NCBI GenBank assembly: GCA_038043525.1
Contig: JBBTBW010000016.1
Coordinates: 14,713-78,712 of the forward strand
DNA length: 64,000 bases
Source: Deltaproteobacteria bacterium
Lineage (GTDB): Bacteria > Desulfobacterota > GWC2-55-46
Reading direction: 5' to 3'
Of this stretch, positions 16,003 through 36,964 are shown in pieces. The position numbers and the translations under genes are program-made. Position 1 is the first letter of the stretch. Every line of letters starts with the position of its first letter. The notes under the pieces were generated by a model. That model had not been told where the DNA came from. It did no database searches and worked only from the letters and a program-made list of their open reading frames with translations.

Positions 16003-16017
16003 CGGCCTCCGATGGGG

Positions 16018-16359: not shown

Positions 16360-16369
16360 ATCAGACCCT

Positions 16370-16864
16370 TCAGCCCTTCTTTTTAACGAAGAAGCCTGCT
16401 GCTGTAAGCTCAGAGGCGATCGCCCCTGCGACCTCAGGGAGCAGCCTTTCCATTGTATCTGTCAGTGTAAGGCCCGGGCAGACCTTTTCAGGAACGACGC
16501 CTATGACTGATGTCTCAGGCGCTCTCCCTTCAAAGGCCGCAAGCGCTAGAAATTCCCTGACCCCCACACCGTGCGCCGTCGTGAGGGTGGAATCGCCTTT
16601 GAGTATATCATCTGATTTGAGACGGCGGATGGAGCCTACCCTGCTGCCGTCTTTTATCGCGTCGACTATGACGGCATGGGTGAACCCGCAGAGTATATCG
16701 GCGAGCTTTGCCCCTGCGGTGCCGCCGTCAAGGCATTCGATCTCGCCGCCTGTAGAGTATAGACGTTCAAAGGCCTCGACAGAGCGCACACCTACCCCGT
16801 CGTCTCTCATGAGTATGTTGCCGATGCCGAGTACCAGCGCCTTTTTTTCAGGTCTTTTCTTCAT
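16370..16864 (-). CDS. [NiFe]-hydrogenase maturation endopeptidase (HyaD/HybD/HycI family)
   Basis: LVLGIGNILMRDDGVGV N-terminus and DAIKDGSRVG motif of hydrogenase maturation proteases. First gene of the minus-strand operon. Confidence 0.85.
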   Translation of the reverse strand: MKKRPEKKALVLGIGNILMRDDGVGVRSVEAFERLYSTGGEIECLDGGTAGAKLADILCGFTHAVIVDAIKDGSRVGSIRRLKSDDILKGDSTLTTAHGVGVREFLALAAFEGRAPETSVIGVVPEKVCPGLTLTDTMERLLPEVAGAIASELTAAGFFVKKKG

Positions 16865-17292: not shown

Positions 17293-19275
17293 ATGCTGAT
17301 ATCGGGATATATGATGAGGAAGATAATAAGAGCGTTTCGCCCTCTGTCGGTCATGGCCTTCGGGCTGATTGTCTGCGCTCTGATGATATGCGTGCTTTTT
17401 GTACCTTCTGTTGCCCTGTCCTCTGAGAAGGCCGTTACATCCGGCTCAGGGGCTGAGGCAGTGGTGCAGTCAGTTCGACCCGGCCTTGCGTCAGCCGGGC
17501 AGGACCCTTCTCCTCCAGCGCCTCTTTCTGCGTCTCTCAGTTCAGCGCCAGATTATGTAAGCGGGGCAGTTGGGGTAAATGCGGCCGTCGGGAAAGGCGA
17601 GGAAGGGCAGGGCGCGCCGCAGCTCAAGGCTGGGGATTATCCGAAGATAAGGGGAGTTAACGGCAGGGTCGCCGTCTGGCTTGCGGCGCAGATGCACCTC
17701 TGGTTTGCCGCCTTCGTTCTTGCCGTTCCGATATTCGTCCTTCTCATAGAAGTCATCGGCGTCTATACCGGTAGCGACAGGTATGACGATATGGCGTACG
17801 AGTTCATACGCGTCTCCATGACCGCCTATTCAGTCACGGCTATTACAGGCGGAGTACTGCTACTCGGCCTTGTCGTCTTTTATCCGGATCTCATGAAGTA
17901 CCTCTCGCGCATCTTCGCCCCTACGATGATCATCTATGCCGTCCTTTTCTTCGTCGAGACAGGGGCGCTATACGTCTATTATTACGGCTGGCGCTCTATG
18001 AGAAGAGGGAGGCTCAAATGGGCGCATCTCGGCGTAGGGTTGGTATTGAACACGGCAGGGACCTCTCTCATGCTTATTGCAAACGCATGGGTGACGTTCA
18101 TGATGACCCCTTCAGGGGTGGGGCCTTCCGGGATCTTTGACGGCAACGTATGGCACGCCGTTAACAATCACCTCTGGTCGCCGATGAACCTCCACAGGTT
18201 CATCGCCAACATAGCCTACGGCGGGTCTATCGTCGGGGCCTACGCCGCTTACAGGTTCTTAAGTGCAAGGACCGAAGAGGCGAGAGCGCACTACGACTGG
18301 ATGGGTTATACCGCCAACCTCATCGCCATAGGGGCTCTGCTGCCGCTCCCGTTCGCAGGGTACTGGCTCACAGCCGAGATATACGCCTACAGCCAGCAGA
18401 TGGGGATAAACCTGATGGGCGGGGTCTTCGCGTGGCTCTTCATAATACAAGCTGTCATAATCGGGGCGCTTTTTCTGGCGGCCAATTATTATCTCTGGTG
18501 CGGCTTTGAAAGAAGCGAGGGAGGCCGCCGTTATACGCCTTATATAAAGTATATAGCCTTAGCCCTGCTCGCATCTTTTCTCGTATGGTTCACTCCTCAC
18601 TCGCTTGTAATGACTCCGTCCGAGGCGGCCCGGTTAGGCTCACAGTACCATCCGTGGCTCGCGCCGCTGGGGCTGATGCCTGCAAAGAACATAGCTGTCA
18701 ACGTCATGCTCCTTGCGACGTTCCTGAGTTTTCTCTTCTACCGGAGGACGAACAGGGTCGCTGTCGTAGGGTGGGCAAAGACCGGCAGCGCAATCCAGGC
18801 CGCCGTCTTTTGCGCGGGGCTTATAAACATAGTCGTCCTCGGTGTCTATTACGGGTATTATACGAACTCCGTCTACAAGGTCGCCTCGTCCGTTCCTCAG
18901 GTAGCGACTACCCTTGCGGTCATCATCGGGATACTTGTTATCGAAAGGCTGGTCTTTAAGGGGGCGAGGGAGGTCGGGCCTTTTAAATGGGGCAGGATGC
19001 CGGGTAGAAGCCAGTACGCATTGGTCCTTATAGCCGTATCTTTTACGTGGCTGATGGGGCTAATGGGTTTCATACGCTCGGCGATAAGACAGAACTGGCA
19101 CGTCTACTCGGTCATGAAAGATGCGTCCGTAGACGCCTTTACCCCGACTATAGCTTACGCGGCAAACGTGGTATCCATCGGCACGGTAGCCTTCATGTCT
19201 ATCGTGGTCTTCATATTCTGGCTGAGCCGGAAAGGGCCCAGTGACAGCGGCAAGGGCGTAAGTGATGAAGAATAA
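17293..19275 (+). CDS. cytochrome bd-like (CydA-like) polytopic membrane protein with N-terminal extension
   Basis: About 14 predicted TM helices. Segment GRVAVWLAAQMHLWFAAFVLAVPIFVLLIEVIG resembles the CydA N-terminus (RWQFA.T..FH..FVP). TM1 is followed by a Ser/Ala/Pro-rich spacer (residues ~40-110). Function inferred. Confidence 0.6.
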   Translation: MLISGYMMRKIIRAFRPLSVMAFGLIVCALMICVLFVPSVALSSEKAVTSGSGAEAVVQSVRPGLASAGQDPSPPAPLSASLSSAPDYVSGAVGVNAAVGKGEEGQGAPQLKAGDYPKIRGVNGRVAVWLAAQMHLWFAAFVLAVPIFVLLIEVIGVYTGSDRYDDMAYEFIRVSMTAYSVTAITGGVLLLGLVVFYPDLMKYLSRIFAPTMIIYAVLFFVETGALYVYYYGWRSMRRGRLKWAHLGVGLVLNTAGTSLMLIANAWVTFMMTPSGVGPSGIFDGNVWHAVNNHLWSPMNLHRFIANIAYGGSIVGAYAAYRFLSARTEEARAHYDWMGYTANLIAIGALLPLPFAGYWLTAEIYAYSQQMGINLMGGVFAWLFIIQAVIIGALFLAANYYLWCGFERSEGGRRYTPYIKYIALALLASFLVWFTPHSLVMTPSEAARLGSQYHPWLAPLGLMPAKNIAVNVMLLATFLSFLFYRRTNRVAVVGWAKTGSAIQAAVFCAGLINIVVLGVYYGYYTNSVYKVASSVPQVATTLAVIIGILVIERLVFKGAREVGPFKWGRMPGRSQYALVLIAVSFTWLMGLMGFIRSAIRQNWHVYSVMKDASVDAFTPTIAYAANVVSIGTVAFMSIVVFIFWLSRKGPSDSGKGVSDEE

Positions 19276-19834
19276 TTTTATATGGATAGCTCTGTTCGGC
19301 ATAGGGCTCGTCATTGCCTACGCGCTCTTTTCGAACCTCTACATACCATCTTCGGTCCCTGATCGGCAGACGGAAGATATCTCATCCGATACAGGCGTTT
19401 TGACTGGTGATGAGCTTGCGGCCTTCGGCGAGGAGATTTATTCCGGCAAGGGCTCTTGCGGACTTTGCCACGACGCTGTCGGAGATAGAGCTCCTGCACT
19501 TGATTCTATCGCAGTGAGAGCCGCCGAAAGGCTTTTGGACCCCCGCTACAAGGGCAAGGCCACTGACGCCGTAGGGTATATCTACGAGTCTATGGCAGAC
19601 CCGTCTGCTTATGTCGTTAAGGGCTACGGGGTAGCAGGGACAGATGATGCGGTCAGTCCGATGCCGGGCGTGCTTGGAGGCCAGATAGAGCTTACCGAAG
19701 TAGAGGTGACGGCTGTCATCGCGTATCTTCAAAAGAGGGCAGGGGTCGAGGTTACGGCAGGTTCTGCCCAAGGACCACTCATGCAGGGAAACGCTCCTGC
19801 GCCTGATACAACCGGCCTGATAAAATCGAGATGA
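19265..19834 (+). CDS. membrane-anchored monoheme cytochrome c
   Basis: N-terminal TM anchor and a single CGLCH heme-binding motif. ATG at 19265 overlaps the upstream stop. Confidence 0.8.
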   Translation: MKNNFIWIALFGIGLVIAYALFSNLYIPSSVPDRQTEDISSDTGVLTGDELAAFGEEIYSGKGSCGLCHDAVGDRAPALDSIAVRAAERLLDPRYKGKATDAVGYIYESMADPSAYVVKGYGVAGTDDAVSPMPGVLGGQIELTEVEVTAVIAYLQKRAGVEVTAGSAQGPLMQGNAPAPDTTGLIKSR

Positions 19835-19838
19835 CCAG

Positions 19839-20609
19839 ATGAAGATAGGAAGATTATTACGGCTCGTTATATTGACGTCCCTGGCGTATCTGCTCTTTAA
19901 GATCCCGGGCATCATCCTCGGAAAGCCGATCCCGTCGTCCATCATACAGATGTATATGTTTTTTGTTATCGTGACGATACTCCTTGTCATGACCGCTACT
20001 GAGGATTCGGCCCAGAGGCTCTTTGGGCCGATAAAAGCCATTGCGAGCGGCCAGTCCCCTTCAATGAGGCGCATTCGCACGGCTCTGTTTTTTATCATGC
20101 CGCTCTTTGCAGCGTATCTGACCTATCTCTCCATGAGACCTTCGACAGACCCGCCCGTGGAGCTCCGCTCAGTGCATCCGGCGCCTCCGGCTCTGATGAC
20201 CGCCTACGAAAAGACCTTTGACCTCGCTCTTCTTGAAAACCCGTTCCGGCCTTTAGAGAAGGAGGACCCGCTTCTCTTTCGGTCGATTGTCGCCGAGGGC
20301 GGGGAGATATATTTCAAGAACTGTTTTTTCTGCCACGGGGACAAGCTTGACGGCAGAGGCCATTATGCAAGGGCTTTAAACCCGGCGCCTCTGCCATTCC
20401 AAGGTGGCGATACGATAGCGCAGCTCCAGGAATCGTATGTATTCTGGAGGATAGTCAAGGGCGGGCCGGGACTCCCTAAGGAGGCAGGGCCTGCTGTTTC
20501 TTCCATGCCCGCCTGGGAGGGGATGCTTACCGAAGAAGATGTCTGGAAGACGATGCTCTTTATATACGACTACACCGGCAATACGCCGAGATCATGGGTG
20601 AACAGGTGA
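19839..20609 (+). CDS. membrane-bound monoheme cytochrome c
   Basis: Three N-terminal hydrophobic helices then a CFFCH heme-binding motif in a C-terminal soluble domain. Confidence 0.8.
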   Translation: MKIGRLLRLVILTSLAYLLFKIPGIILGKPIPSSIIQMYMFFVIVTILLVMTATEDSAQRLFGPIKAIASGQSPSMRRIRTALFFIMPLFAAYLTYLSMRPSTDPPVELRSVHPAPPALMTAYEKTFDLALLENPFRPLEKEDPLLFRSIVAEGGEIYFKNCFFCHGDKLDGRGHYARALNPAPLPFQGGDTIAQLQESYVFWRIVKGGPGLPKEAGPAVSSMPAWEGMLTEEDVWKTMLFIYDYTGNTPRSWVNR

Positions 20610-20620
20610 AGGGCTATTCA

Positions 20621-22162
20621 ATGCGTCAGTTCATCTTGATATCGATATCTGCGGCTATCGGGTTGTTTTTTGCAGGCGGCTCGAATCTGAGCCATGCCGA
20701 CGAGGCTGTATCTCCGGCTGTAAGGGATGCCTACGTAAAGAGGTGCTCGTGGTGCCACGGCCTTGAAGGCGCCGGAGACGGCCCTGCATCAGGGTACTTA
20801 AACCCGGCGCCAAGGGACTTTACCCTTGGTATGTATAAGTGGAAGACGACGCCTTATGACGAGTACTCGCCGTCGGACGGAGATCTTGAGAGGATGATCG
20901 CAGGTAGATCAGAAGGCGGCTGGGACGGTCTGAAGGATACGTCCATGCCAGGCTGGTCGGATACCATCACAAGGCAGGAGATAAGGGATATCGGCGCCTA
21001 CATAAAGACCTTCGCCAGCCTCGGCCCGTCTGTCAACAAGGTGATAGAGCCGCCTTCAGGCATGAAGGGAGCGTCGAAGAATGTTCTCGAGCAAGGCAGG
21101 AAGCTCTTTCTCGACAGGTGCTCTGAATGCCACGGCGAGCTTGGCAGGGGAGACGGCACAAAGAGGCTCAAAGACGACTGGGGCGGGCGAACGTGGCCGA
21201 GGAACCTTACAAAGGATTGGACGTTCAGGGCAGGCAGTGATGTAAAGGATATCTACAGGAGGATCATGGCAGGCATCCCGGGCACACAGATGCCGAGTTT
21301 TGCCGACCCTCAGAGCAAAAAGAGGCTCTCTGATGAAGAGGCGTGGGCTGTAGCCTCGTACGTCAAAACGTTAAACGCGCCGCACAAGAGGCCTGTCGAG
21401 GGAGCCGTCATAAACGCCGTTAAGATAGACACCCCGGTGCCGACGAGCGTTGACGACGAAAGATGGGAGAAGGCGGCGTACGCGAGTTTTTATACACTTC
21501 CTCAGGTAATAGCCGGAGAGAGGCACTTCACCCCGACTATCAACTCGATGTCTGTAAAGGCTCTTTATAATGACATGGATATCGCCTTTCTTGTCGAATG
21601 GGACGATCCGACGCGCGGCGTGCCGGGAGATGTAAAGTCAATGGAGATCGCCGGAGGCGAGGTCTTTGTTGACGGGGCGGCGATGCAGTTCACTGTAAAG
21701 CCGTCAGGTACCCTGAGGCCGTATTTCGGGATGGGAGACGGAATGCACCCGGTGAATCTCTGGATGTGGCAGTCCGCAGAAGGGGCCGGGGCGGTGCGGC
21801 TTTTGAACGCCAGAGGGGTTAAGGAGATAGATGAGCGTGACGCGCCGATGGTCGGGCTTACTGCCTCTGGTGTGTATTCAAACGGCCAATGGAAAGCGAT
21901 TTTTACAAGGCCGCTTTTGACGGAAGACCCGTCTGTTGATATCCAGTTCAGCCCCGATACCTTCATCCCTGTCGCATTGTCAGCGTGGGACGGGTCAAAC
22001 AATGAGAAGGGCTCGAAGCACGTCTTGACGCAGTGGCAGTGGGTAAGGCTTGGCAGGGATGAGGGCGGGTCGCCTTACCTCTGGCCTGCTCTCGCAGGTG
22101 TAGCAGTGCTGGCGATAGAGCTTTTGTGGGTCCGCAGTGCGAGGAAGAGGCGGGAGGGGTAG
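20621..22162 (+). CDS. diheme cytochrome c fused to ethylbenzene-dehydrogenase-gamma-like (EB_dh) heme-b domain, C-terminal TM anchor
   Basis: Signal peptide (MRQFILISISAAIGLFFAGGSNLSHA), CSWCH and CSECH motifs. The C-terminal ~250 aa (YNDMDIAFLVEWDD...MQFTVKP...GMGDGMHPVNLWMWQ) resembles the EB_dh/NarH-gamma-like domain. Ends in a hydrophobic anchor. GAAGGG SD upstream of the ATG at 20621. Confidence 0.7.
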   Translation: MRQFILISISAAIGLFFAGGSNLSHADEAVSPAVRDAYVKRCSWCHGLEGAGDGPASGYLNPAPRDFTLGMYKWKTTPYDEYSPSDGDLERMIAGRSEGGWDGLKDTSMPGWSDTITRQEIRDIGAYIKTFASLGPSVNKVIEPPSGMKGASKNVLEQGRKLFLDRCSECHGELGRGDGTKRLKDDWGGRTWPRNLTKDWTFRAGSDVKDIYRRIMAGIPGTQMPSFADPQSKKRLSDEEAWAVASYVKTLNAPHKRPVEGAVINAVKIDTPVPTSVDDERWEKAAYASFYTLPQVIAGERHFTPTINSMSVKALYNDMDIAFLVEWDDPTRGVPGDVKSMEIAGGEVFVDGAAMQFTVKPSGTLRPYFGMGDGMHPVNLWMWQSAEGAGAVRLLNARGVKEIDERDAPMVGLTASGVYSNGQWKAIFTRPLLTEDPSVDIQFSPDTFIPVALSAWDGSNNEKGSKHVLTQWQWVRLGRDEGGSPYLWPALAGVAVLAIELLWVRSARKRREG

Positions 22163-22195
22163 CATCTGTAAGGCGCCTTTTGCGGTTTCAAGTTT

Positions 22196-22270
22196 ATAAC
22201 TTGAACCCAATGATCCGTAAAGGCGCATGCTAAATTCAAGGGGCAGGTTGTAAGCCTGCTCCTTGAAGAA
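22196..22270. repeat. left imperfect direct repeat flanking GmrSD insertion
   Basis: ACTTGAACCCAATGATCCGTAAAGGCGCATGCTAAATTCAAGGGGCAGGTTGTAAGCCTGCTCCTTGAAGAAG is ~80% identical to 24255-24328. Confidence 0.5.
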
Positions 22271-22368
22271 GTCTATAGATGCTGTGTTTGCGGCAGACCT
22301 CCTAGACAGGGAAGCTTACGGTTTTGCGGGTCTTAGAGGAAATGACAAGACGGGCATGAACGACTTCT

Positions 22369-24144
22369 TCATTGCTCGATAGCTTTTTCAAGATCAGCAA
22401 TTGGCAAGGTAATACCATAGGATGCCAACAACATAGTAAGCGTCTCTTTATGGTTCCTTTTTAGATCATCCAACGTCCAATTATTGAAGGTTTGTAAAAT
22501 TCTTACGGAGTTGCTAAAAAGTTCTACGTTTTTCTGAAAGTATCCTTCCCTTTTTTGCCGGTAATCCTGATTGCCTTGTGCGGTATTCTTCCTCCGAGAC
22601 AGGAGAATGAGATTGCCGAGCCTGTTAGTCCATTTGTCTCGCTCCGGTCCTGTAAAATCAGCAACCCATTGACTACTTGTATCCGGTGTCTGAGGAAGAA
22701 TATGCTCAATGCTTATTGTTTCAGGTGGTGAAAATTTAGTTGTGTGCCCATGATAGGCAAGATCGATCTTTAAAATGATATATCTAGCATAACCACGGCC
22801 ATAAATTGCCCCTGTGAGCGATCGAAGAATATCCTGAGTTTCCACTTTGAAAACGGGAGAAGCAAACAGGGCATTTTGATCGGCTGCACCTTCGATCTCT
22901 TTGAGGATGGCATTTGCATTTTCGATACGTTTTGTTGGTGCCAATCCAATTATCCAATCAGAAGAAAACTTCACGTCTAAAAGGTGCAAGAACTTGAGTA
23001 AGTTTTCCGTTTTATATTTTGCGTAATAGCATAGAAGGGGTGCAATCCAGTAATCAGCCTCAAAACCAATTCGCATCAGGGTAAGTTGGTTGTGAAGTTC
23101 GAAGCTGTTTGTCAAATTGTAAGTGTCATCTTCAAAAAGACTAAGGTAGTGCTTATAATGACTTTCGACAAATTCGAAAGTATCTTCCCCTTTTTTTAAT
23201 AGCGGAGTTTTATTGATATAGGTTTTCGTATTACGGTCAAATTCTTTTGGAGCGTAGATATTTTCCTCAAATTCTTTAAGAAGATTGTAGCCTGCTTTCT
23301 GTTTGACAAGCACGGTTCTGAGGTGAGAGAGAAAGTTGTCGAACTCTTCAGTAAAATATCCCTCAATATTCTCCCATGTTTTTGCATATTTGGTTCTGGT
23401 GTTGTTGTCTTTAATTCTGGCGAGGTTCTCTGCCTTAAGAATGTCGCTATTGCGTAGCTTGATGCCTCGGTTGTTCATAACTGTAAACAGATGAAAGGCA
23501 TCTTCAAGCTCTTCAGTCGCAACATAGATCATCAGAACGTTGGAGCGTAAAAACGGAAAGAACGTTTCCAGAGATTTGCCATTCTTGAAAAAGCCTCTAA
23601 TGGTCAGAATGGCATTGGCCATATTTCTGATGGACATGTCTTCATCGTTTTCTTGAGAAAGATGCTTTATTTCTTCGTCTTTGAGTGTACCTCCATCTGC
23701 CTTGACGTACTTATCAACAAAATTCTTCACTGTATCGCGGATATCAAAGACAATACGACTGCGCTCGGGAATATTGTCGTCGGGATTTGCCATCTGATAA
23801 ATAGTTTCCCGGCAGGTCTTGATCCGCGCCTTATTGTCTGCTGGTGTTAGATCACGAACCACAGCAGTTATCAGGAAGAGGGTTGTCAGCCGTTGTTGGC
23901 CGTCAAGAAGGTCATGCTCTTCGTATCTGATATTCCCATCCTGCTTATCCGATTTTTTTAATACCATAGAACCAAGAAAGTACTGAGACCTGGGGTTAGA
24001 TTGACTCGCACGATACACATCATCAAGCAATTCTACAACTTGATCAGCCTCCCAAACATATGGACGCTGGTATTCCGGGATGCGGTACCATTTCAGGAAA
24101 ACATCTTTTACGAAAAGTTTCTCACTTTTAATTTCAGGCGCCAT
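22369..24144 (-). CDS. GmrSD-family type IV restriction endonuclease (DUF262 + DUF1524)
   Basis: N-terminal DUF262/ParB-like motif (EYQRPYVW...DGQQRLTT), C-terminal His-Me/HNH-like DUF1524 (IEHILPQ...NLILLSRRKN). Gene body is conspicuously AT-rich. GAGGTGG SD upstream. Confidence 0.85.
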   Translation of the reverse strand: MAPEIKSEKLFVKDVFLKWYRIPEYQRPYVWEADQVVELLDDVYRASQSNPRSQYFLGSMVLKKSDKQDGNIRYEEHDLLDGQQRLTTLFLITAVVRDLTPADNKARIKTCRETIYQMANPDDNIPERSRIVFDIRDTVKNFVDKYVKADGGTLKDEEIKHLSQENDEDMSIRNMANAILTIRGFFKNGKSLETFFPFLRSNVLMIYVATEELEDAFHLFTVMNNRGIKLRNSDILKAENLARIKDNNTRTKYAKTWENIEGYFTEEFDNFLSHLRTVLVKQKAGYNLLKEFEENIYAPKEFDRNTKTYINKTPLLKKGEDTFEFVESHYKHYLSLFEDDTYNLTNSFELHNQLTLMRIGFEADYWIAPLLCYYAKYKTENLLKFLHLLDVKFSSDWIIGLAPTKRIENANAILKEIEGAADQNALFASPVFKVETQDILRSLTGAIYGRGYARYIILKIDLAYHGHTTKFSPPETISIEHILPQTPDTSSQWVADFTGPERDKWTNRLGNLILLSRRKNTAQGNQDYRQKREGYFQKNVELFSNSVRILQTFNNWTLDDLKRNHKETLTMLLASYGITLPIADLEKAIEQ

Positions 24145-24254
24145 TTACCACCTCGGTTTCTTAAATCATCAGACATCTGTGGACATCCGTGTCTGTGCAA
24201 TCCTTTTAGCATAATGTGGAATGTAAAGCAACCCCCTGTCGGATCAAAATCTGC

Positions 24255-24328
24255 GACTTGAACTGCATGATCAGGAAAGGCGTATGCGAAATCCAAGGAG
24301 CAGGTTGCAAGCTTGCTCTTGCGAAGAA
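24255..24328. repeat. right imperfect direct repeat flanking GmrSD insertion
   Basis: ACTTGAACTGCATGATCAGGAAAGGCGTATGCGAAATCCAAGGAGCAGGTTGCAAGCTTGCTCTTGCGAAGAA, paralogous to 22196-22270. Confidence 0.5.
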
Positions 24329-24334
24329 AACCGC

Positions 24335-24775
24335 TTGTTACTAACCCCACCCAGCCTCCCCTTGTGAGTAAGGGGAGGAGCAAAACCAAAACGGCCTTTG
24401 AATTTAGCCGCTGCTTTTAACAAAACCCGGGTCATGGCGTAGCGAGCCTGACTGAGAGACGTTGAGCAGGTTCTTGTATCTACTGCGAAACGGCTCGAAA
24501 GCGAAGCGAGCCATACCCAAAAGGAGCGCCGAAGCGCAAAGCAAGAGTCAGACCGATGTTTTTCGCAAAGGGGCGTTGTAAAGAAAATCATTCGGCGGGT
24601 GTGACCCGCCCTACCAGACTTGTATCTGCTGCGAAACGGCCGGACAGCGAAAGCGAAGCGAGCCATACCCAAAAGGCGCACGGAAGTGCAAAGCAGGAGT
24701 CAGGCAGATGTTTTTTGTAAGGGCAGTTCGAGCCATACCCAAAAGACGCGCAGAAGTGCAACTCAGCTCTTTGTC
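24335..24775. repeat. block of modular dispersed repeats (palindrome unit A, the TTTGAATTT module, and ~160-nt structured unit C ending in GATGTTTTT)
   Basis: Shares near-identical modules with 32960-33117 and 36965-37590. Example: 24400-24560 is ~90% identical to 37425-37585. No ORF of credible coding quality. Confidence 0.65.
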
Positions 24776-24957
24776 CTCGACCATACCCCGTAAAGAAGCA
24801 GGGCAGTGCCTGCAATGATGAATAGATAACTGACAGGCCCTATCTGCTCGCCTGACTTGATGGCGAGCAGGGAATTCAATCCGCCTGTGAATACAAGCGC
24901 GCACCCGATGAGGCTGCGGCCAGCTCGGTTGGCATTATAACCCTCGTTCCCCTTCAT
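24763..24957 (-). CDS. putative small two-helix membrane protein
   Basis: 64-aa ORF whose ATG directly follows the radical-SAM stop (TAG-ATG), with two hydrophobic segments. Its 3' end runs into the repeat block, so it is speculative. Confidence 0.3.
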   Translation of the reverse strand: MKGNEGYNANRAGRSLIGCALVFTGGLNSLLAIKSGEQIGPVSYLFIIAGTALLLYGVWSRTKS

Positions 24958-26184
24958 CTATCGGCCTGCCCGTTTTCTCAGTGTCGCCATGACCTCAGGC
25001 GTTATCTCGTTCAATCCCTTTGACCTAGCGTATGCCTCTACGCCCTTTTTTATCATCGATCTTAAAAATGAAGGCGCTTTGTCAAGGCGCTCCTGAGCCT
25101 CGGCCGTCCATCTCACAAATGTGCCGGTGATTTTCTCAGAGGCGTTTTTTGACGGAGTGTATACGCACCACGGGTCTTCGCCTGAGAGGCTGTTGCCTGA
25201 AGCAAAGGCGCGGGCCCTGCACCCTCCGCACGTCTCTTTGAATTCGCATCCGCCGCACCTGCCTTCTAGGTCGCGCTTCCTCATTGCTGTAAAGAGGGGG
25301 TCTTTCTCCCAGATATCTTTGAGGGATTTTTCTCCTATGGCAGGTCCTTCCGGTGAGGGAGGTATGTACGGGCACGGGGTGACACGCCCTTCCGGCGTTA
25401 TCCTCATATAACCCGTAGCGGCGATGCATCCGCTCGTGCCGCCTCTTGCCAGCGAGCCGTCAGGATTGATCCTGCCGGCAACTCTCACGATGTGCGGCGC
25501 GCATCTGGCCCTGACCATAACGCCTCCGGCCGTATCGTCTGCCTTTGCGATTTCTTCAAGGACGCCTTCGTATTCCGAAGGAGAGAGGTCGGTCATTTGC
25601 TGGCCTCTGCCTGTGCAGACAAGGAAGAATATGTTTACTCCAGTAGCACCCTTTTCACCGGCGAGCCGTATTACGTCCTTTAGCGACCCTCTGTTCTCTT
25701 TCGTCACTGTCAGGTGGAGTTGGAACGGAAGACCGCTTTCCTTCAGGTTGTCTATTCCTTTTATAGTCGAGAGCCATGCGCCTGGAACCCCTCTGAACCT
25801 GTCGTGTACTTCAGGGGCCGCGCTGTCAAGGCTTACGCCTACGCCTGCGACGTTTGCCTTTATGAGGCTCTCGATTGCGGAAGGGGTCAGGAGCGTGCCG
25901 TTTGTCCCGACTACGACCGAGAGGCCTTTTGATGAGGCGTATGAGGCTATCTCAGGAAGGTCCGGCCTTAAAAGCGGTTCCCCTCCCGTCATGATGACCA
26001 TGGCAGAGGGGTTTATCGAGGCTATCTCATCTACGATCCTGAGGGCTGATCTTGTATCGATGTCAGAGGCGCCTTCGAGCTCTACCGCGCCTAAGTAGCA
26101 GTGGACACACCTCAGGTTGCACCTCTTTGTCAGGTTCCATGAGACGAGAAATGGAGGCGTTGTCATCTCTGGTGTCTCTGGCAT
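24958..26184 (-). CDS. radical SAM/SPASM-domain protein with C-terminal PCP_red-like helical module
   Basis: CNLRCVHCY (CxxxCxxC), SPASM cysteines (CGGCEFKETCGGCRARAF), C-terminal W-TAEAQERLDKAPSFLRSMIKKGVEAYARSKGLNEITPEVM. Confidence 0.85.
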   Translation of the reverse strand: MPETPEMTTPPFLVSWNLTKRCNLRCVHCYLGAVELEGASDIDTRSALRIVDEIASINPSAMVIMTGGEPLLRPDLPEIASYASSKGLSVVVGTNGTLLTPSAIESLIKANVAGVGVSLDSAAPEVHDRFRGVPGAWLSTIKGIDNLKESGLPFQLHLTVTKENRGSLKDVIRLAGEKGATGVNIFFLVCTGRGQQMTDLSPSEYEGVLEEIAKADDTAGGVMVRARCAPHIVRVAGRINPDGSLARGGTSGCIAATGYMRITPEGRVTPCPYIPPSPEGPAIGEKSLKDIWEKDPLFTAMRKRDLEGRCGGCEFKETCGGCRARAFASGNSLSGEDPWCVYTPSKNASEKITGTFVRWTAEAQERLDKAPSFLRSMIKKGVEAYARSKGLNEITPEVMATLRKRAGR

Positions 26185-26186
26185 CC

Positions 26187-27380
26187 TTAGCCTTCCATAT
26201 TCTTTCTGATTTTGCGCATGAACGCCGGGCTTATGGTATTAACGCCGTCTTTCCTGGCGGCATCCTCGACCATGAGCCTGACGACACCCCTTGCGAACAG
26301 GGGGATAGAGTCGAGTATGGAGGTCGCATCTTTTTCCCATACGGGCGCGTCTCCTGTGGCGGTACCTGAGGCGGCTCTTTCCGCCTCTCCATCATATCTC
26401 CTTGACGAGATGAGCAGGTTGCAGCTTGTGCGCTGCAGGCTTCTTTCTGTGAGAGACCCGATATCAAGTGACGGGCTCTCATGCGCCCCGGTCTTTCCGA
26501 GGACGAAGAGAAAGGGGCGGGCCTCTTCGACGTGCCTTATCACCACGTCCGATGGCTTGCCTTCAAGCAGGGTCGTTTTTATGGTGACGGAGTTCTGCTT
26601 AGCTATCATGGAGGCTGTATCAAGGTGGTCCTGATATATGCGTCCGAGGCCCTTGTCTATGACCTCTTCATGGAGACGCTCCTGCTCTGAAAACCTGAAG
26701 AGCCTGCCTGCCTCGTCGGATAATACTCCTCCCAGAGAGCGGAAGGCGTGTCTATGGTAATCGGTGTCGTATGCGCTTATAGCCTCTATCTGCCCGCCGA
26801 ACGCTTTTGAGAGTTCGATTGCTGTTAGTAGCCCTCCGAATGAGCGAGTGGAGCCGTCTATTGCGACGATGATCGAGCCTGAACGGTCCGTATCCACCCT
26901 TGAGATGAGCGTGTCGCAAGGCGCCATCCTTGCCACCCTCGCGCATACGCTGCCGGTCTCGCTATCTCTCGTTTTGCCGAGCCCTGATGAGCCGATGACA
27001 AGAAGGTCGTATCCGCCGCTAGCGGCCTCTTTGATCAGTTCCTCGAAGTTTTTGCCCTCTCTGCTGATCGCATCGGCCTCGACGCCGAGGGTGCGGGCAG
27101 ATGTGAGGAATACGTCGTTATACGAATCAGAGATTATGCGCAGGCCCTTGGATATCAGTGTGTCGTGCACCTCTCTCTGGTCTTTCAGGCGGCTTGTGTC
27201 CTGATACTGGGGGGGCAGGCCTGCCTCCATCTGGCGGAACCTGTCGTTATGGAGGTTTGCCGCGTAGACGTGACAGCCCGTTGCCGCAGCTCCTTCAAAG
27301 CGGGCGATTGCCAGGCCGAGATCCGCGCCTGAGTTTGACTGTGCGGAGTTATCAAGACAGATGAGGATTTTTTTTAGCAT
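26187..27380 (-). CDS. tandem universal-stress-protein (UspA) domain protein with C-terminal PCP_red-like module
   Basis: Two UspA-like alpha/beta domains (ILICLDNS..., IIVAIDGS...) plus a C-terminal W-EKDATSILDSIPLFARGVVRLMVEDAARKDGVNTISPAFM, clearly paralogous to the C-terminus of the downstream radical-SAM protein. Stop lies 2 nt before the next gene's start. Confidence 0.8.
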   Translation of the reverse strand: MLKKILICLDNSAQSNSGADLGLAIARFEGAAATGCHVYAANLHNDRFRQMEAGLPPQYQDTSRLKDQREVHDTLISKGLRIISDSYNDVFLTSARTLGVEADAISREGKNFEELIKEAASGGYDLLVIGSSGLGKTRDSETGSVCARVARMAPCDTLISRVDTDRSGSIIVAIDGSTRSFGGLLTAIELSKAFGGQIEAISAYDTDYHRHAFRSLGGVLSDEAGRLFRFSEQERLHEEVIDKGLGRIYQDHLDTASMIAKQNSVTIKTTLLEGKPSDVVIRHVEEARPFLFVLGKTGAHESPSLDIGSLTERSLQRTSCNLLISSRRYDGEAERAASGTATGDAPVWEKDATSILDSIPLFARGVVRLMVEDAARKDGVNTISPAFMRKIRKNMEG

Positions 27381-27632
27381 AGAGAAGATATTTTATCCCA
27401 ACTGAATTCCGGAAGGAAGGCTTTTAAGGGGCAGCGGCTGAAGGCATCGTTCTGTCGCGGCAGCGGCGGCCGAAGTAGATAATAATGCCGGATGATATAT
27501 TTTGACGGAAAAACCTCGGCCTCGCTCATCTCTTTAAAAAAAACAGAGGGCTGATATAAGGCTGAACCGAATATCAGCACGGCCATCTTTTATCCGGAAA
27601 CAGGCATGGATCAGAGCCTCGTTTATGTTATA

Positions 27633-28292
27633 TCATTTCGGATCGGACGGGCCTTCATCAGGACCATCGCCGGAAGTTATCTCATTGAAGGCTCCGGTAG
27701 CCTCGTTGTAGGCTGATATCGTCCCTGCGCCTATGTCGTAGTACCAGCCGTGGAGCGCGAGCTTTTTGCTCTCGAACCCCTTTTTGACAAGCGGGTAGCT
27801 CTTGAGGTTCTCTATCTGGTTAACTATGTGGTTCTTCTCGATCTGTTCGTAGCATGTCTGGAATGAAGGGTTGGTGCAATGGCTTATGACGTTATGCTTC
27901 ACCTCGGAGGCGGCCCCGAGCCAGCCCTTTAGCCCGGGCATATCGGCAAAGTCCTTATCATCATAGTAGAGCGCCTTCATCGCCCCGCAGTCAGAGTGTC
28001 CGCACACGACTATGTCGGTTATCTGGAGCGCGTGTACTGCGAACTCTATGGCCGCGGCCGTGCTGTTTTTCAGGAGCGCAGGGTCGTTAAACGGGATTAT
28101 GTTGCCGATGTTCTTTAATATGAAGAGCTCTCCGGGCTTCGACTGCGTTATGAGGTTCGGGTCGACGCGCGAATCCGAGCAGGCTATGAAAAGCACGTCA
28201 GGGGATTGCCCCTCTGAGAGCTCCTCGAAAAAAGCCTCCTGTTTCTTATGGAGCTGCTGGAACTTTTGAACGCCTTCGTACAGGTCGCGCAA
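27633..28292 (-). CDS. beta-class carbonic anhydrase
   Basis: CSDSRV and HSDCGAM zinc-ligand motifs. TTG start preceded by AAGGAG; no in-frame ATG near the N-terminus. Confidence 0.9.
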   Translation of the reverse strand: MRDLYEGVQKFQQLHKKQEAFFEELSEGQSPDVLFIACSDSRVDPNLITQSKPGELFILKNIGNIIPFNDPALLKNSTAAAIEFAVHALQITDIVVCGHSDCGAMKALYYDDKDFADMPGLKGWLGAASEVKHNVISHCTNPSFQTCYEQIEKNHIVNQIENLKSYPLVKKGFESKKLALHGWYYDIGAGTISAYNEATGAFNEITSGDGPDEGPSDPK

Positions 28293-28388
28293 TGCCTCTC
28301 CTTTATACGGCAGTCCGTATCGAGTTATGTGATTGTTGTTTTATGTACTCATGCGGCCTCTGCCGGAATCTGAGCATCGGCCGCATTA

Positions 28389-29651
28389 TCAGAAAAGTCC
28401 GGTTTGTACCGGGCCGGCAGGCACGATCAGATCTTTTTCGCCGAAGATGCTGATGCGGCCGAACTCGCCATCGAACCCCGGGGAGATCGCAACGTTGCCC
28501 TGCCTTACCCTTGTGATCGCCTCGGCGAGGCGCGCTCCCCCTGCCGAGGCGATCTCGTCAAAGCCCATATCAAGGAGTATTTCGAACTCGGTGCCAGCCT
28601 CGGTCGTCAAGCGATCGTACTCGTTTTGCACCTTCTTTGTGTTTATCCCTGTCCCGATGACCTCTGCTACTATCTCGGCAAGAGGTATGACGTGCCTTGA
28701 AGGTATTGTACCGGCAGGCGTGGACCCTTCGTCCCTGTCTGCGAGTTCTGCTATGCGGTTAAGGACGCCTACTGTCAGGCCTCTGCCGCATACAGGGCAG
28801 TTGGCGCGGGCCTTTTCCGTTTCTTCGGGGGTGAACATGATGCCGCACGCCCTGTGTCCGTCATGGTGGTACTTCCCTTCCTCAGGAAAAAATTCTATCG
28901 TGTAGAGGAATCTCGCAGGGTCTCTTGCCTTTATTGCGCCTGTTATCGCAGTGTAGCTCAGGTCGCAGTCAAAGACGTTTGCCTCCCTGCCGAGTTTCGA
29001 CGGCGAGTGGGCGTCTGAGTTGGATATGAGGCATATATTGTCAAGGGCGGAGAGCCTCCGGTTCATCCCGGGGTCTGATGAGAGGCCTGTTTCAATGGCG
29101 TGTATGTGGCGGCTGTCATCCCCGAAGCATTCTTCGATGGAGTCGAACCCTGACTTGGACCCGAATATGGAAAACCAGGGGGTCCATGCGTGCGCGGGTA
29201 TAAGCATCGCGTCAGGGGAGGCGTCAAGTACTATCTTCAAAAGGTCTTTTACAGGAAAACCTAATATCGGGCGGCCGTCAGACGATACGTTGCCTCTTGA
29301 TGCAAGGGCCGTGTTTATCCTCTGCGCCGTCTCTATGGAATCCGCGAAGATAAGGCTGTGGACCTTGCGCGTCTTGCCGCCCTGCGTGTAGATGTTGCAG
29401 ACCTCGGCGGTCAGCATGAAGCTTGTCGGTCTTGCTTTTTCCTGTTCTTTCTTTAAGACGAAGAGCCCGCTACCTGACGGCGCAAGGCTTTCGCATATCG
29501 AGCTAAAGTGGGCAGGGTGTGTGAAGTCGCCTGTCCCGACGATGCAGATCCCTTTCTTCGCGGCCCACCTGCCGATGGCAGGAAGGGTCATCTCCTTGCT
29601 CGTAGCCCTTGAGTATCCGCTGTGTATGTGAAGGTCTGCTATTATCCGCAT
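28389..29651 (-). CDS. PHP-domain protein, endonuclease Q-like (TIGR00375-like)
   Basis: N-terminal ADLHIHSGYS PHP metal motif, further His/Asp clusters, a C/H-rich knuckle (HHDGHRAC...CPVCG). Size ~420 aa. Assignment is from memory of the family. Confidence 0.65.
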   Translation of the reverse strand: MRIIADLHIHSGYSRATSKEMTLPAIGRWAAKKGICIVGTGDFTHPAHFSSICESLAPSGSGLFVLKKEQEKARPTSFMLTAEVCNIYTQGGKTRKVHSLIFADSIETAQRINTALASRGNVSSDGRPILGFPVKDLLKIVLDASPDAMLIPAHAWTPWFSIFGSKSGFDSIEECFGDDSRHIHAIETGLSSDPGMNRRLSALDNICLISNSDAHSPSKLGREANVFDCDLSYTAITGAIKARDPARFLYTIEFFPEEGKYHHDGHRACGIMFTPEETEKARANCPVCGRGLTVGVLNRIAELADRDEGSTPAGTIPSRHVIPLAEIVAEVIGTGINTKKVQNEYDRLTTEAGTEFEILLDMGFDEIASAGGARLAEAITRVRQGNVAISPGFDGEFGRISIFGEKDLIVPAGPVQTGLF

Positions 29652-29679: not shown

Positions 29680-30453
29680 TCAGTTCCCGATGGTGTTGTA
29701 TCCGGCGTCCACGTATATGATCTCGCCTGTGACGCCGCTTGACAGGTCGCTCAAGAGATAGAGCGCCGTCCTTGCCACGTCAGCCTGAGTCACGTTTCTT
29801 CTCAGCGGCGCCTTTGTCTCTACCGCGTCCAATATCGATTTGAACCCTGAGATGCCCATTGCGGCAAGCGTTTTTATCGGCCCTGCCGAGATGGTGTTGA
29901 CCCTGATGTTTTTGGGGCCGAGGTCTGCCGCGAGGTAGCGCGCAGAGGCCTCGAGCGCCGCCTTTGCCACACCCATGACGTTATAGTTCTGGATGACCTT
30001 TTCGCTCCCGTAATAGCTCATGGTGATGATCTTGCCGCCGCCGTTTGCCTCCATGAGTGGTATGGCATAGCGCGTAAGGGCGACAAGCGAGTAGGCTGAG
30101 ACGTCCAGGGCCAGGGCGAAGCCTTCCCTTGAGGTATCGTAGAACGCGCCCTTGAGCTCTTCTTTTTTGGCGAAGGCGAGAGAGTGGACCATTGCGTCGA
30201 GCCCGTTCCATTCGGTCTTGAGCCTGTCGAAGACGCCGGCTATCTGGGAGTCGTTGGTGACGTCGCATGGCAGGATGATCTTTGAGCCGATAGATTCGGC
30301 AAGAGGGCGTACCCTTGATTCAAGGACCTCTCCGGCGTAGGTGAAGGCAAGCTCCATCCCTTCGCTGTGCAGAAGCTGGGCAATGGCCCAGGCGATGCTC
30401 TTTTCATTGGCGACGCCGAATATGACGCCTTTTTTGCCGTCAAGAAGTCCCAT
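29680..30453 (-). CDS. fabI: enoyl-[acyl-carrier-protein] reductase (NADH)
   Basis: [25 protein letters not shown]-terminus, catalytic Y-x6-K ([21 protein letters not shown]). ATG at 30453 with GGAGG SD; the longer ORF-track start is a TTG. Confidence 0.9.
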
Positions 30454-30590
30454 AGGGTGATACCTCCTGTCTTTTTGGGCCTGCGGCAAGGGGAGCAGCC
30501 ACGCGGGCGCTGTGTTTTGCGGTAGCTAAAATGCTATATTTTTTACCATTTACAGCCGGATTGTTCAACAAAATACTTTGTCAGAGCGCC

Positions 30591-33117: not shown

Positions 33118-36100
33118 TCAGAAGGTCAAATGCTCAGGTTTGCCTATATAATATCCCTGCGCATAGTCGACGCCAAGCTTCTTTAAGATCTGGAACGTCT
33201 CCTCGCTCTCTACGAATTCAGCGATGCTCTTCACCTTCATACCTCTCGCCACATCCGCTATGGCCTTGACGAAAAGCTGGTCGTTCGCGTTTTTTTTGAG
33301 GTTGCGTATGAAAGAACCGTCTATTTTTATATAGTCCACGTCGAGTTCCCTCAGATAGGTGAAAGACGTGAATCCCACGCCGAAATCGTCGAGGGAGAAA
33401 TGGCATCCGAGCGACTTCAGCGCCTTGATGAATCTTGCGGCCCGTTCGATGTCGCAGACCGCCGCCGTCTCCGTGATCTCAAAGACTATATGGTCGGGAT
33501 CGGCACCTGTTTCCGATATGGCGGACCTGATGAACAGCAGCAGATCGTCATCCATCAGGTCCTTTCCCGAGAGGTTTATGCTGAATGTGAGAGATCTGCC
33601 CTTGCGGCCTGCCTCCGACATGAGTATCAGAGTCTTTTTTATTATCTGTTTATCGACTGCTCCGATTATGTCGAACCTCTCGGCCACTTCGATAAAGGCG
33701 CCGGGCAGAAGGATGTTTCCTTCCTCGTCGCGCATCCGCGCCAGCGCCTCATAGTGGCGGACCTTGTTGTCGTTCAGCCCGATGATTGGCTGCATCCATA
33801 CCTCAAAGCGGTCTTCATCGAGGGCCTTGAGTATACGCTCCTTCCACTTGAGCCTTGAATGGATGTCTTCCAGTATATGGTCTTCATCGCGGTAGAGGTG
33901 GCTTCTGTTGCGTCCAAGCTCCTTGGCCCGGTACATGGCCGCATCGACCTTTGTGAAGAGTTCGCTCACCGCTGCCCCGTGGACAGGATACAGGACTGCG
34001 CCTATGCTTGCGGACAAACGGAAAGGAAGACTCCCCGAACGGTATCCCTCTATCTGTTCTCTGATCCTCTCAGCTATCGCCATACCTTTTTTTTCATCCG
34101 TCGGAGCCAGATAGATTGCGAACTCATCCCCGCCAAGCCGCCCCAGGATGGATTCTTCGTCCTGAAGGGTTTTCTTGAGCAGCCTGGAGACGCTTCTCAG
34201 CACCTCGTCACCGAGGCCGTGCCCGTACCCGTACGAATCGTTTATGAATTTGAAATGGTCTATGTCAAGCATCAGCAAGACTCCAGGTTCTTTGTCTTCC
34301 AGATTGCTGAAAAGCCGCTCGCCCATTAGTTCCATGAAACGCGACCTGTTCAAAAGGTCGGTCATCTCGTCGTGATAGGCGAGGTATTTGATCTTTGCTT
34401 CCGAGGCCTTCTTTTCAGTGATGTCTTCCTGGACCGCGAGGTAATTTATGATATTCCCGTTCTGGTCCTTGACCGGGCTTATGACCGTATTGCACCAGTA
34501 GCGCCCTCCGTCTTTCGTCCTGTTTTTCAGGATGCCGCGCCACGTCCATCCTCCCTTTATCGTGCCCCACATCTCCCCGTACATGGAATCAGGGGTCTCC
34601 CCTGAAGAAAGGATGCGGGGCGTCTGGCCAAGGGCCTCCTGTTTGGCGTAGCCCGTGACCTGCTCGAAAATCGGGTTTACGTATTCGATGACCCCGTCGC
34701 TGTCAGTGATGAAGACTATGCTACTGCTCTGTTCTATCGCCGCGGAAAGTTTTTTTATCTCGAAGGTCGCCTGCCTCTGTTCAGTGACATCGGTGCCGTA
34801 AATATTGACATACTCGCTTTGGGCCACCGGCGCCACTACCATCGAGAATATCCTGCCTTTATTCTTCAATTCGAGTAGTTTGGTTTTCTGAGAGTCGTAG
34901 ACCTCATTGACGGTCTGCTTCAAGGCCTCCGGCACTGATTGTCCAGCCTCGCATCCCCATTCATCAAGCAACGGGGCGCTCGCATCGTTTCCGTACAGTA
35001 TCGTTCCGTCCGTTGCGATGCGCAAGACAGGGTTCGGGTTCTCCGAAGGGAACTTTGCGAGGACCTTTATCTCTTCCTCGACCCGCTTGCGCTCGGTGAT
35101 ATCATGGGCCGCGCAGACTACCCCGAAGAGTGCGCCTCCGGCCCCTCTCATCACCGATCCTGAGAAAAGCACCGGTATCTTTCTGCCGTCTTTGGCCAGA
35201 TACGTCTTCTCGGCGTTGCGGATAAAACCGTTTTTCATAAGCTCTTCAAAGTCTTTTTCTTGTTCTTCAAATATCGTTAATATGGGCCTGCCCAAAAGTT
35301 CGTCATCTACGTAGCCTAACATATCAAGGGCGGCCTTGTTGACGGCGGAAACAGCGCCTTCGGGTGTCGTCACTATGAGGCTGTCCATCATGCTTTCAAA
35401 GATTTTTTCAACGTAATTCCTGGATACGGTTATCTTCTGCAGGTCCACGGCCATTTTGTTAAAGGCCGCTCCAAGCTCGCCGATCTCGTCTTTTGACACC
35501 AATTCGATTCGCGAGCCGAATTCTCCGGCACCGAATTTTAAAGCAGCGTTCCTGAGTCTTTCAATAGGCCTTGAGATGGAACGCGACACCATTAAGGCCA
35601 TAAGGACGACGAAGGCCGGAGAGACGGCAAAGAGCGCCAGCAATGCGTTCCTGACCCTCCTGACAGGACGCAGTATCTCGTCGGCGTTGAAGTCCATTAC
35701 GACAGTCCACCCAAGGCCGCTGAATCCCTTCGAATGGCTGAAGGCCCTCAATATTTCCATGCCTTCTTCAGGGATGAAAACGAAACCGCTTTTCCCTCCG
35801 AGCACGTCAGAGGCCCCCTGCAGTCGCGAGACATCCTCGCCGAACTCTTCGAGCCTTATGTCCTTGCCCTGTTTTTTCAGAGTCGGGTCCAGTCCGCTGA
35901 AGATGACAAGCCCTTTTTTGTCGAGCAGACGCGGCTCCATGCTCTTATATTTAGAACGCGTCTGGGCCAGATCGATGATGCTTTTCATGGCCTCTATATT
36001 CAAGACACCCTTGAGAAGACCTGCAAAGGCGCCTTTTCTGTCATATATGTTTACAACGATATCGATTGAAACTGCGTCTGAGCTTTCGTCGAATTCTACG

Positions 36101-36639: not shown

Positions 36640-36964
36640 CCCAACCGCCTTGTTTTTTGCTCTCGCTGGAGCCGGTGCTAAATCGTCTGAAAAAGCGTGA
36701 AAGTCAGCTGAAAGGGGAAATATCCGGAGTTGCAAATTCATGGGGGTGTGGCTCAAAGATGGTATGCGCCTGCTTTTGCAGGCGGTCAGGCCCTTCACTG
36801 CGAGGCTGTCTCGAAGCCGCAGGGACTGAGCTGTCCGGGGTTACATTGGCGTTAGTGTAGTTCGTTGAAGACCTGAGAGATCGCCTGAACATCACCTGAC
36901 AATCAATATATTCTACGTCTGACTCGCTCTTTTTGCAACCGGCCCACAAAAAAACAAGGCTGAT

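Follow-up and report, generated by a model that had tools for sequence, protein, structure and literature searches.

Within a 64,000-nucleotide (nt) stretch of the Deltaproteobacteria bacterium assembly GCA_038043525.1 (contig JBBTBW010000016.1, positions 14,713 to 78,712; hereafter the window), an operon of three genes on the minus strand encodes a tandem universal stress protein (USP), a radical S-adenosylmethionine (radical SAM) enzyme with a SPASM domain, and a small membrane protein. We found that the enzyme falls in the AhbD/NirJ group, that it ends in the same PCP_red module (PF08369) as the USP, and that enzymes tailed in this way are, to judge from their sequences, a distinct orthologous family inside that group. 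We propose, tentatively and with slightly less than even confidence, that the operon belongs to an oxygen-independent system that modifies heme side chains or forms heme for membrane oxidases, with PCP_red as a shared docking or hand-off module. The original prediction, made by reading the DNA without database searches, had described the three-gene operon and its shared tail. That part stood, while the AhbD/NirJ (heme) affinity, the neighbouring oxidase operon and the extra components present in other phyla had been overlooked.

Both tails were recovered by a hidden Markov model search above the Pfam gathering cut-off of 32.5 bits, which settled in the affirmative the earlier suggestion that they are PCP_red domains. 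Residues 348-390 of the USP (26211..26339, minus strand) scored 37.7 bits and residues 359-401 of the enzyme (24982..25110, minus strand) scored 60.3 bits. When the full-length proteins were compared by BLASTP, the tails were the only similarity (22/59 identical, E 9e-8), and when aligned alone they were identical at 18 of 46 positions (39%, E 4e-11). The Smith-Waterman score of the tails was 86, against 20.6 +/- 4.1 in 20,000 shuffles with a maximum of 49, so the alignment given in the original prediction is statistically significant. W359, L367, P371, F373 and E383 of the enzyme tail were invariant in 80 homologues. AlphaFold2 models placed three helices in each tail, at residues 361-369, 372-388 and 396-404 of the enzyme, and 350-357, 361-378 and 385-395 of the USP.

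The known relatives of this module are the tail of BchB/ChlB, subunit B of dark-operative protochlorophyllide oxidoreductase (DPOR), and stand-alone PCP_red proteins. The enzyme tail matched the solved ChlB C-terminus (2xdq_B residues 460-509, E 1.4e-6) and the nuclear magnetic resonance structures of stand-alone PCP_red (PDB 2kru; 2l09, Asr4154). The likeness comprises a Pfam domain of ~45 residues, three predicted helices and the pattern W..A...L...P.F.R.....E..A. Unlike DPOR subunit B, the window proteins lack nitrogenase-like domains; only their last ~55-70 residues match, and the BchB equivalog models gave 20-34 bits against cut-offs of 490-912 (for TIGR01278/NF002789, 20.5-33.6 bits against 490-509). 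The module here also differs from that of DPOR in occurring in 1-5 copies on USP, radical SAM or rubredoxin-like/Zn-ribbon proteins. A model built from the tails found no third copy in any window open reading frame (ORF) of at least 30 amino acids (aa). A profile of both tails detected 935 representative proteins at E up to 1e-3 among 1.84 billion. The 113 best PCP_red representatives contained Usp domains in 26 cases, radical SAM/SPASM in 8-11 and rubredoxin-like domains in 14, and the remainder were mostly PCP_red-only arrays. The two scaffolds had been thought odd carriers for such a module. These numbers make them instead the two commonest partners of this PCP_red subtype. The suggestion that the two tails bind one another, or share a docking partner, is plausible. 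We found no paper that treats PF08369 in a functional context.

The enzyme (24958..26184, minus strand, 408 aa; Pfam Radical_SAM, SPASM and PCP_red) belongs to the radical SAM superfamily and its SPASM subgroup, with 96.7 bits for Radical_SAM (PF04055, cut-off 29.5) and 30.9 bits for SPASM (PF13186, cut-off 21.5). In the 80 homologues, the CxxxCxxC cysteines C22, C26 and C29 were invariant, as were eight further cysteines (C228, C253, C271, C310, C313, C319, C322 and C340). The AlphaFold2 model (predicted local distance difference test, pLDDT, 85; predicted template modelling score 0.82) showed a SPASM fold followed by the three tail helices. Its structural neighbours were SuiB, PqqE, SkfB, CteB and anSME; PqqE was also the best PDB match by sequence, and there is no solved AhbD structure. 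Comparison with NCBIfam pointed to the tetrapyrrole enzymes. The seven best matches took in all six families of tetrapyrrole side-chain radical SAM enzymes: NirJ2 (292 bits), AhbD (280), TIGR04053 (253), AhbC (181), TIGR04347 (172), NirJ (169) and NirJ1 (168). Those to NirJ2, AhbD, TIGR04053, AhbC and NirJ lie below the family cut-offs. Peptide maturase families scored 155 bits or less. The enzyme likewise lacks the marks of maturases of peptides made on ribosomes and modified after translation (RiPPs), as Pfam detected no RiPP recognition element (RRE) or PqqD-like domain in it and no conserved precursor peptide gene was found next to it.

The enzyme resembles AhbD (TIGR04545) and NirJ2 (TIGR04055) in its CxxxCxxC core and in a SPASM domain with cysteines for two auxiliary clusters. 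Its core is collinear with these families over residues 13-344, with ~35-41% identity to untailed AhbD-like proteins. It is a member of neither equivalog family, scoring 279.7 bits for AhbD and 292.2 bits for NirJ2 where both cut-offs are 500, nor of TIGR04053 (252.6 bits against 395). Tailed enzymes as a group differ from AhbD and NirJ2 in these scores (280-292 bits), in bearing 1-3 C-terminal PCP_red modules, in being coupled to a USP with the same module, in having oxidase genes rather than ahbABC alongside, and in a distribution that takes in many phyla from which the siroheme route is not known. We found no second AhbC-like radical SAM gene within 10 kb of the enzyme, either in the window or in the tailed loci, and thus no ahbA/B/C association within that distance. 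To place the enzyme, a neighbour-joining tree was built from core residues 10-345 only of 36 tailed and 67 untailed sequences. The tailed enzymes, from at least 11 phyla, formed one clade on the core alone with a bootstrap of 95/100, and the core of the window enzyme was 41-91% identical to tailed and 28-41% identical to untailed sequences. Because of this clade and these identity ranges, we regard the tailed enzymes as a family of their own and not as canonical AhbD.

This family is widely distributed. At least 240 database homologues share the Radical_SAM/SPASM/PCP_red architecture and are named only 'radical SAM protein'. In a genome scan, tailed matches over the full length came from Alpha- and Gammaproteobacteria, Planctomycetota (Brocadia, Scalindua), Nitrospirota, Nitrospinota, Poribacteria, Chloroflexota, Gemmatimonadota, Methylomirabilota, Bacteroidota/Rhodothermales, Acidobacteriota and Deltaproteobacteria. 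The same scan brought up a second group of untailed AhbD-like genes, many of them beside a second AhbC-like radical SAM gene, as is often the case in the untailed loci L036-L067. Two proteins of ~800 aa, P0121 and P0122, are natural fusions of the tailed enzyme to a TIGR04053 radical SAM/SPASM protein, the C-terminal half of which scores 724-732 bits against the cut-off of 395. TIGR04053, the third-best match of the window enzyme, is therefore present there as a true member, and it serves as a second catalytic domain. That the partner in the fusion is likewise AhbD-like is a hint of two reactions in succession, echoing the AhbC/AhbD and NirJ1/NirJ2 pairs and their two-step chemistry. On the contig of P0122 the gene order is Cyt_bd_oxida_I, cytochrome c, USP_PCP_red and radical SAM.

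The operon is tightly packed. The USP gene (26187..27380, minus strand, 397 aa; Pfam Usp twice plus PCP_red) is separated from the radical SAM gene by 2 nt (...GGC TAA GG ATG...), and the ATG of the small gene (24763..24957, minus strand, 64 aa) abuts the stop codon of the radical SAM gene (...CGA TAG ATG AAG..., 0-nt gap). In Desulfobacterota relatives whose enzymes are 54-90% identical, the corresponding junctions have 2-nt gaps or overlaps of 1-4 nt. The order is also kept in these relatives: genes for a FabI-like protein, a PHP-like protein (and a carbonic anhydrase), then USP, radical SAM and the small ORF. Convergent to it lie genes for a cytochrome c/EB_dh protein, two cytochromes c and a CydA-like protein, followed by hyc/hyp genes. 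Junctions that are tight or overlapping among relatives bear out the proposal that the three ORFs are one conserved unit. A rubrerythrin gene is conserved near the operon in the Desulfobacterota relatives as well. A scan of 22000-28500 against Rfam detected no RNA element. A consensus scan gave a weak terminator-like hairpin ~150 nt 3' of the small ORF (24594..24610, minus strand), within a repeat block.

The USP protein contains two Usp stretches (91.3 bits in Pfam), and 69 homologues were compared. The G-x2-G-x9-G motif was invariant in both halves (G130/G133/G143 and G295/G298/G308), together with the D-x-S start of each half and several histidines in long helical inserts. The AlphaFold2 model (pLDDT 89) matched best, by Foldseek, the tandem USPs Rv2623 of M. 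tuberculosis and the ATP-bound TTHA0350 of T. thermophilus (E ~3e-16, TM-score up to 0.85 on the target). Rv2623 and other tandem USPs that bind ATP are associated with hypoxia. The fold and the G-x2-G-x9-G-(S/T) motif in both domains identify an ATP-type USP, with nucleotide binding as a prediction. The window protein is ~15-19% identical to such tandem USPs (Rv2623, TTHA0350, UspE) and differs from them in that it has long helical inserts with invariant His and carries PCP_red on a disordered linker (residues 333-342, pLDDT <50 in the model). It is not a UspE equivalog either, with 19.7 bits for NF008380 where 227 is the cut-off. Database homologues are named only 'universal stress protein'.

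The small ORF, which had been offered as speculative, proved to be a conserved gene at a fixed position. Its product has two hydrophobic segments in a hydropathy scan, at residues 15-35 and 39-61, consistent with two transmembrane helices, and matches no Pfam or NCBIfam family. In the relatives with 54-90% enzyme identity, the homologous genes code for 59-73 aa and either begin at the stop codon of the radical SAM gene or overlap it; products from L001 (78% identical), L004 and L090 were aligned, and genes of 60-66 aa were called at this position in L091 and L092. Besides the start Met, 10 positions were invariant, and no Cys was among them (Cys19 varies). Among the 38 tailed loci described below, the gene was confined to the Desulfobacterota clade. 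Other membrane-type ORFs take the same position elsewhere, a CopD-like one in Nitrospira and an unannotated hydrophobic one in Methylomirabilota. Since the small protein is restricted to Desulfobacterota and has no invariant Cys, it looks more likely, on sequence grounds, to be a membrane anchor or partner than a substrate. The variable Cys19 was the reason for considering the role of substrate unlikely. A search upstream of the operon found no short-peptide gene that is conserved, in agreement with the earlier remark that no precursor peptide is evident. A 70-aa ORF at 27374-27586 was considered as a fourth gene or precursor and rejected, as it is not conserved and does not align to a hydrophobic, apparently membrane protein of 80-90 aa that is conserved directly upstream of the USP in three relatives (L004:8509-8781, L091:6506-6748, L092:6523-6771). 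That gene left no tblastn trace in the window and has no counterpart in L001 or L090.

We then examined how often the pair recurs. In all, 38 non-redundant tailed loci were compared within 10 kb of the enzyme gene, 28 of which are flanked by 5 kb or more on each side. A USP gene was present in 23 of the 38 tailed loci, from at least 10 phyla, and in 19 of the 28 well-flanked ones. A comparison of database match lists pointed independently to ~30 enzyme/USP pairs on the same contig, recognised by equal values for the longest contig (2,533,238, 448,945, 216,858 and 116,000, for instance). The pair is thus not peculiar to the window, and its co-occurrence across genomes, on which the original prediction depended, is borne out. 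Outside Desulfobacterota the system is more elaborate. The USPs there are 550-770 aa long with 2-5 PCP_red repeats, and the enzyme has up to three. In 8 of 12 long USPs, a rubredoxin-like CxxCG...CPxC pair lies between the repeats. RUBY_RBDX was found in 14 of the 113 PCP_red proteins, among them P0361 (33.7 bits against a cut-off of 26.5). Rubrerythrin-type rubredoxin-like inserts of this kind were seen in L009:7749-9860 (residues ~465-483), L017:2987-4927, L055:8007-9914 and P0361. Gammaproteobacterial USPs (L011, L033) have a C-P-F motif in place of the insert.

A third PCP_red carrier, absent from the window, was present in 10-11 loci (L017:7371-7874, L019:7354-7878, L022:7968-8438, L029:9713-10159, L030:9686-10210, L032:16183-16734 and others). 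It is a protein of 150-200 aa with an N-terminal Zn-ribbon/rubredoxin-like CxxC...CxxC and a C-terminal PCP_red. The ribbon reads MKFLCxxCDxxM...CPxCGxExAMLTNPxETQ, and many of the C-termini end in ...FFGM. In 8 of 11 such proteins the motif C-P-F-x-x-[VM] is conserved; in our reading it resembles Cys-Pro heme regulatory motifs, a concept described previously (PMC2742820). An Mrp/ApbC-type Fe-S carrier ATPase was encoded in 11 tailed loci, and a second USP and a HEAT protein were other recurrent neighbours. In Nitrospira and Poribacteria a CopD-like membrane protein adjoins the enzyme, with one weak HemJ/UPF0093 match in L017. In one Nitrospira locus (L009:4185-7583) the pair is preceded by genes for an ODP-family di-iron protein, a UbiE/COQ5 methyltransferase and a B12-binding radical SAM protein, the last of which relates to the slr0320 'PSII high-light acclimation' (photosystem II) family at 445 bits, below its cut-off. 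We found no curated family, solved structure or paper that covers this architecture or gene system.

One prominent feature of the surroundings was a convergent cytochrome bd-like oxidase cluster with overlapping gene junctions (17293..22162, plus strand), recognised from Pfam matches of the orthologues in L001, L004, L090, L091 and L092, from the number of CxxCH motifs and from transmembrane segments. It encodes a CydA-like protein without CxxCH (17293-19275), two membrane-anchored monoheme c proteins (19262-19834 and 19839-20609), and a diheme c protein fused to an EB_dh heme-b domain with a C-terminal anchor (20594-22162), which matches the NCBIfam DMSO-reductase-type heme b subunit; all are on the plus strand. 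We know of no characterisation of the cofactor content or the assembly of such oxidases. The cluster fits the cytochrome-c-oxidising bd-like families described previously (10.1101/2021.01.16.426971), whose subunit composition and function likewise lack experimental confirmation (PMC10839748). Radical SAM or USP partners go unmentioned in that description, as they do in the genome papers on Nitrospirales and Nitrospinota, and we found no literature connecting either protein with bd-like oxidases.

Oxidase genes recur near the tailed enzymes. CydA-like and cytochrome c/EB_dh genes were found within 10 kb in 11-12 of the 38 loci (Desulfobacterota, Gemmatimonadota, Rhodothermales/Bacteroidota and Gammaproteobacteria), and genes for an aa3-type oxidase (COX1) were nearby in 7 loci. 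In L055 the pair directly follows COX2-COX1-UbiA(CtaB-like)-COX3-COX3-COX4, and in L089 cbb3 oxidase genes adjoin the enzyme. Counting any oxidase, 14 of the 28 well-flanked loci had one nearby. The idea of a heme A synthase was rejected: the window lineage has no aa3 genes nearby, and heme A is therefore not the common denominator. The oxidase-locus ORFs scanned with Pfam, which gave partial cover, contained CtaB-like UbiA genes and no match to CtaA/COX15.

On the basis of these results, the operon could represent, in its smallest form, an accessory system that is widespread, has no name and centres on an AhbD/NirJ-type radical SAM/SPASM enzyme. The enzyme would act on the side chains of a free tetrapyrrole by chemistry that needs no oxygen. 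Most likely it would convert coproheme to heme b by oxidative decarboxylation, as AhbD does, or else perform a further modification of heme, and the product would serve as cofactor for the adjacent membrane oxidase when oxygen is scarce, with the bd-like cluster as the proposed client. The three-helix PCP_red modules may act as a common handle that gathers the enzyme and its helpers, or may pass the tetrapyrrole between them. In the window the helpers would be the ATP-binding USP, which might make activity or assembly responsive to nucleotide levels or energy status, and the small membrane anchor. In other phyla they would also include the rubredoxin-like electron-transfer domains, the Cys-Pro-Phe-motif protein and the Mrp-type Fe-S carrier ATPase. 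A functional analogy is offered by the HemW-type radical SAM heme chaperones, in which a protein of radical SAM fold is proposed to handle heme for respiratory enzymes. HemW belongs to a HemN-like family and not to SPASM, and has neither PCP_red nor a USP partner; no homology is claimed. The heme reading is a natural one because AhbD is known also from outside the Ahb pathway, as an alternative that does not depend on oxygen (PMC13564367).

Several points weigh against the proposal of a heme system for oxidases. We infer the function from family resemblance and gene context, and the enzyme scores far under the AhbD and NirJ2 equivalog cut-offs; radical SAM enzymes at 35-40% identity often differ in reaction. 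Half of the well-flanked loci have no oxidase nearby and about a third of the loci have no nearby USP (among them those of anammox bacteria, Nitrospina and some Poribacteria), and the loci are a non-random sample, the best 80 of more than 580. No heme biosynthesis gene was present among the 10 large window ORFs scanned. Among the invariant residues of PCP_red there is no His, Cys, Met or Tyr able to ligate heme, and the DPOR papers examined describe a trans-acting helix at residues 398-420, with no role found in them for the terminal PCP_red.

One alternative is that the enzyme is simply the housekeeping heme b synthase of this lineage, the AhbD of its siroheme-dependent pathway, and that the tail is mere decoration. 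The USP would then be a stress or hypoxia protein in its own right, and the adjacency to oxidase genes would be incidental. The collinear core and the complete set of radical SAM and two-auxiliary-cluster cysteines would fit, one source labels the homologue P0151 'AdoMet-dependent heme synthase', and Desulfobacterota do use the Ahb pathway (PMC13564367). We nevertheless consider this unlikely. The score of 280-292 bits is far from 500, and several other Desulfobacterota metagenome-assembled genomes in the sample carry untailed AhbD-like genes that lie outside the tailed clade, often beside an AhbC-like radical SAM gene. Independence of the two proteins is hard to explain because they have a rare module in common and are translationally coupled, and fusion of the enzyme to a second AhbD-like one (P0121, P0122) would make little sense if the two halves were to catalyse one and the same step, since one of them would be redundant.

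An enzyme with SPASM architecture, whose structural neighbours are SuiB, PqqE, SkfB, CteB and anSME, might also be a maturase of the QhpD, anSME or RiPP SPASM kind. Its target would be a subunit of the oxidase, the small membrane protein or a partner that bears PCP_red, and PCP_red would be its handle for substrate recognition. Such a role would suit the small ORF coupled downstream, the structural genes of multi-subunit oxidases that adjoin the enzyme, and the module common to it and to small partner proteins. We find it improbable, since sequence affinity is clearly highest to enzymes of free tetrapyrroles, an RRE/PqqD-like domain is lacking, and the small ORF is a mostly transmembrane product of one clade without invariant Cys or other obvious target; upstream, no short-peptide gene is conserved, the 70-aa ORF included. 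Very unlikely, in our view, is that PCP_red is a generic oligomerisation or stability module and the pair a unit induced by hypoxia or stress with no specific link to oxidases or heme. The match of the USP to Rv2623, the many repeat-only PCP_red arrays, the nearby rubrerythrin and the low-oxygen-induced operons of Nitrospira marina that are flanked by USPs (PMC8115632) agree with it. What it leaves unexplained is that oxidase adjacency recurs in unrelated phyla with differing gene orders, that the core is specifically of the AhbD/NirJ type, and that the partner proteins have redox and Cys-Pro-Phe features.

A bolder version of the heme proposal, to which we give little credence, is a dedicated oxygen-independent pathway that makes and delivers a modified (non-b) heme, or installs heme, specifically for the uncharacterised bd-like oxidases (OR-N/OR-C type) and for heme-copper oxidases nearby. 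PCP_red would serve it as a hand-off or docking domain for tetrapyrroles. If true, it would also account for the unexplained C-terminal domain of DPOR subunit B. Tetrapyrrole-type radical SAM enzymes are of a known kind; what is new here is the set of partners and the PCP_red context, the first outside DPOR, in which the module is repeated, tethered by linkers and common to enzyme and helpers. Neither the enzyme family nor its USP partner has a name, yet both are conserved in nitrite oxidisers, anammox bacteria, Methylomirabilota, Poribacteria, Gemmatimonadota, Bacteroidota, Acidobacteriota and Desulfobacterota. As neighbours of terminal oxidases they would give a testable handle on heme supply to those oxidases at low oxygen, and a reaction different from that of AhbD would be a new radical SAM step in tetrapyrrole biochemistry.

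Inspection of the flanking sequences revealed further features of the window. Upstream of the operon, 27633-29651 and 29680-30489 (both minus strand) hold genes for a beta-carbonic anhydrase, a PHP-like/TIGR00375-family (MJ0043_C) protein and a FabI-like reductase; the PHP-like and FabI-like genes are syntenic with the operon in L001, L004, L091 and L092. Between the operon and the oxidase cluster lies a GmrSD-type restriction endonuclease gene (22369-24144, minus strand; GmrSD_N and GmrSD_C) in a low-GC stretch (43% versus ~54%). As the two clusters are only 70-650 nt apart in L001, L004, L091 and L092, it looks like an inserted defence gene. Directly 3' of the small ORF there is an intergenic direct repeat (24473-24766) with 2-3 copies of a unit of ~150 nt. 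Its 17-nt core, CGAGCCATACCCAAAAG, is also found at the intergenic positions 37160-37176 and 37517-37533, giving 5 matches where 0.01 would be expected; the repeat had no Rfam match, and the core was absent from 92 fetched loci. Farther away are hydrogenase maturation genes for HypF, HypB and HycI (12997-16864, minus strand), assigned by synteny with L001, a gene for a large Cache-HAMP-PAS-GGDEF-EAL signalling protein (33118-36798, minus strand), and a complex I (nuo) operon (44236-57775, plus strand).

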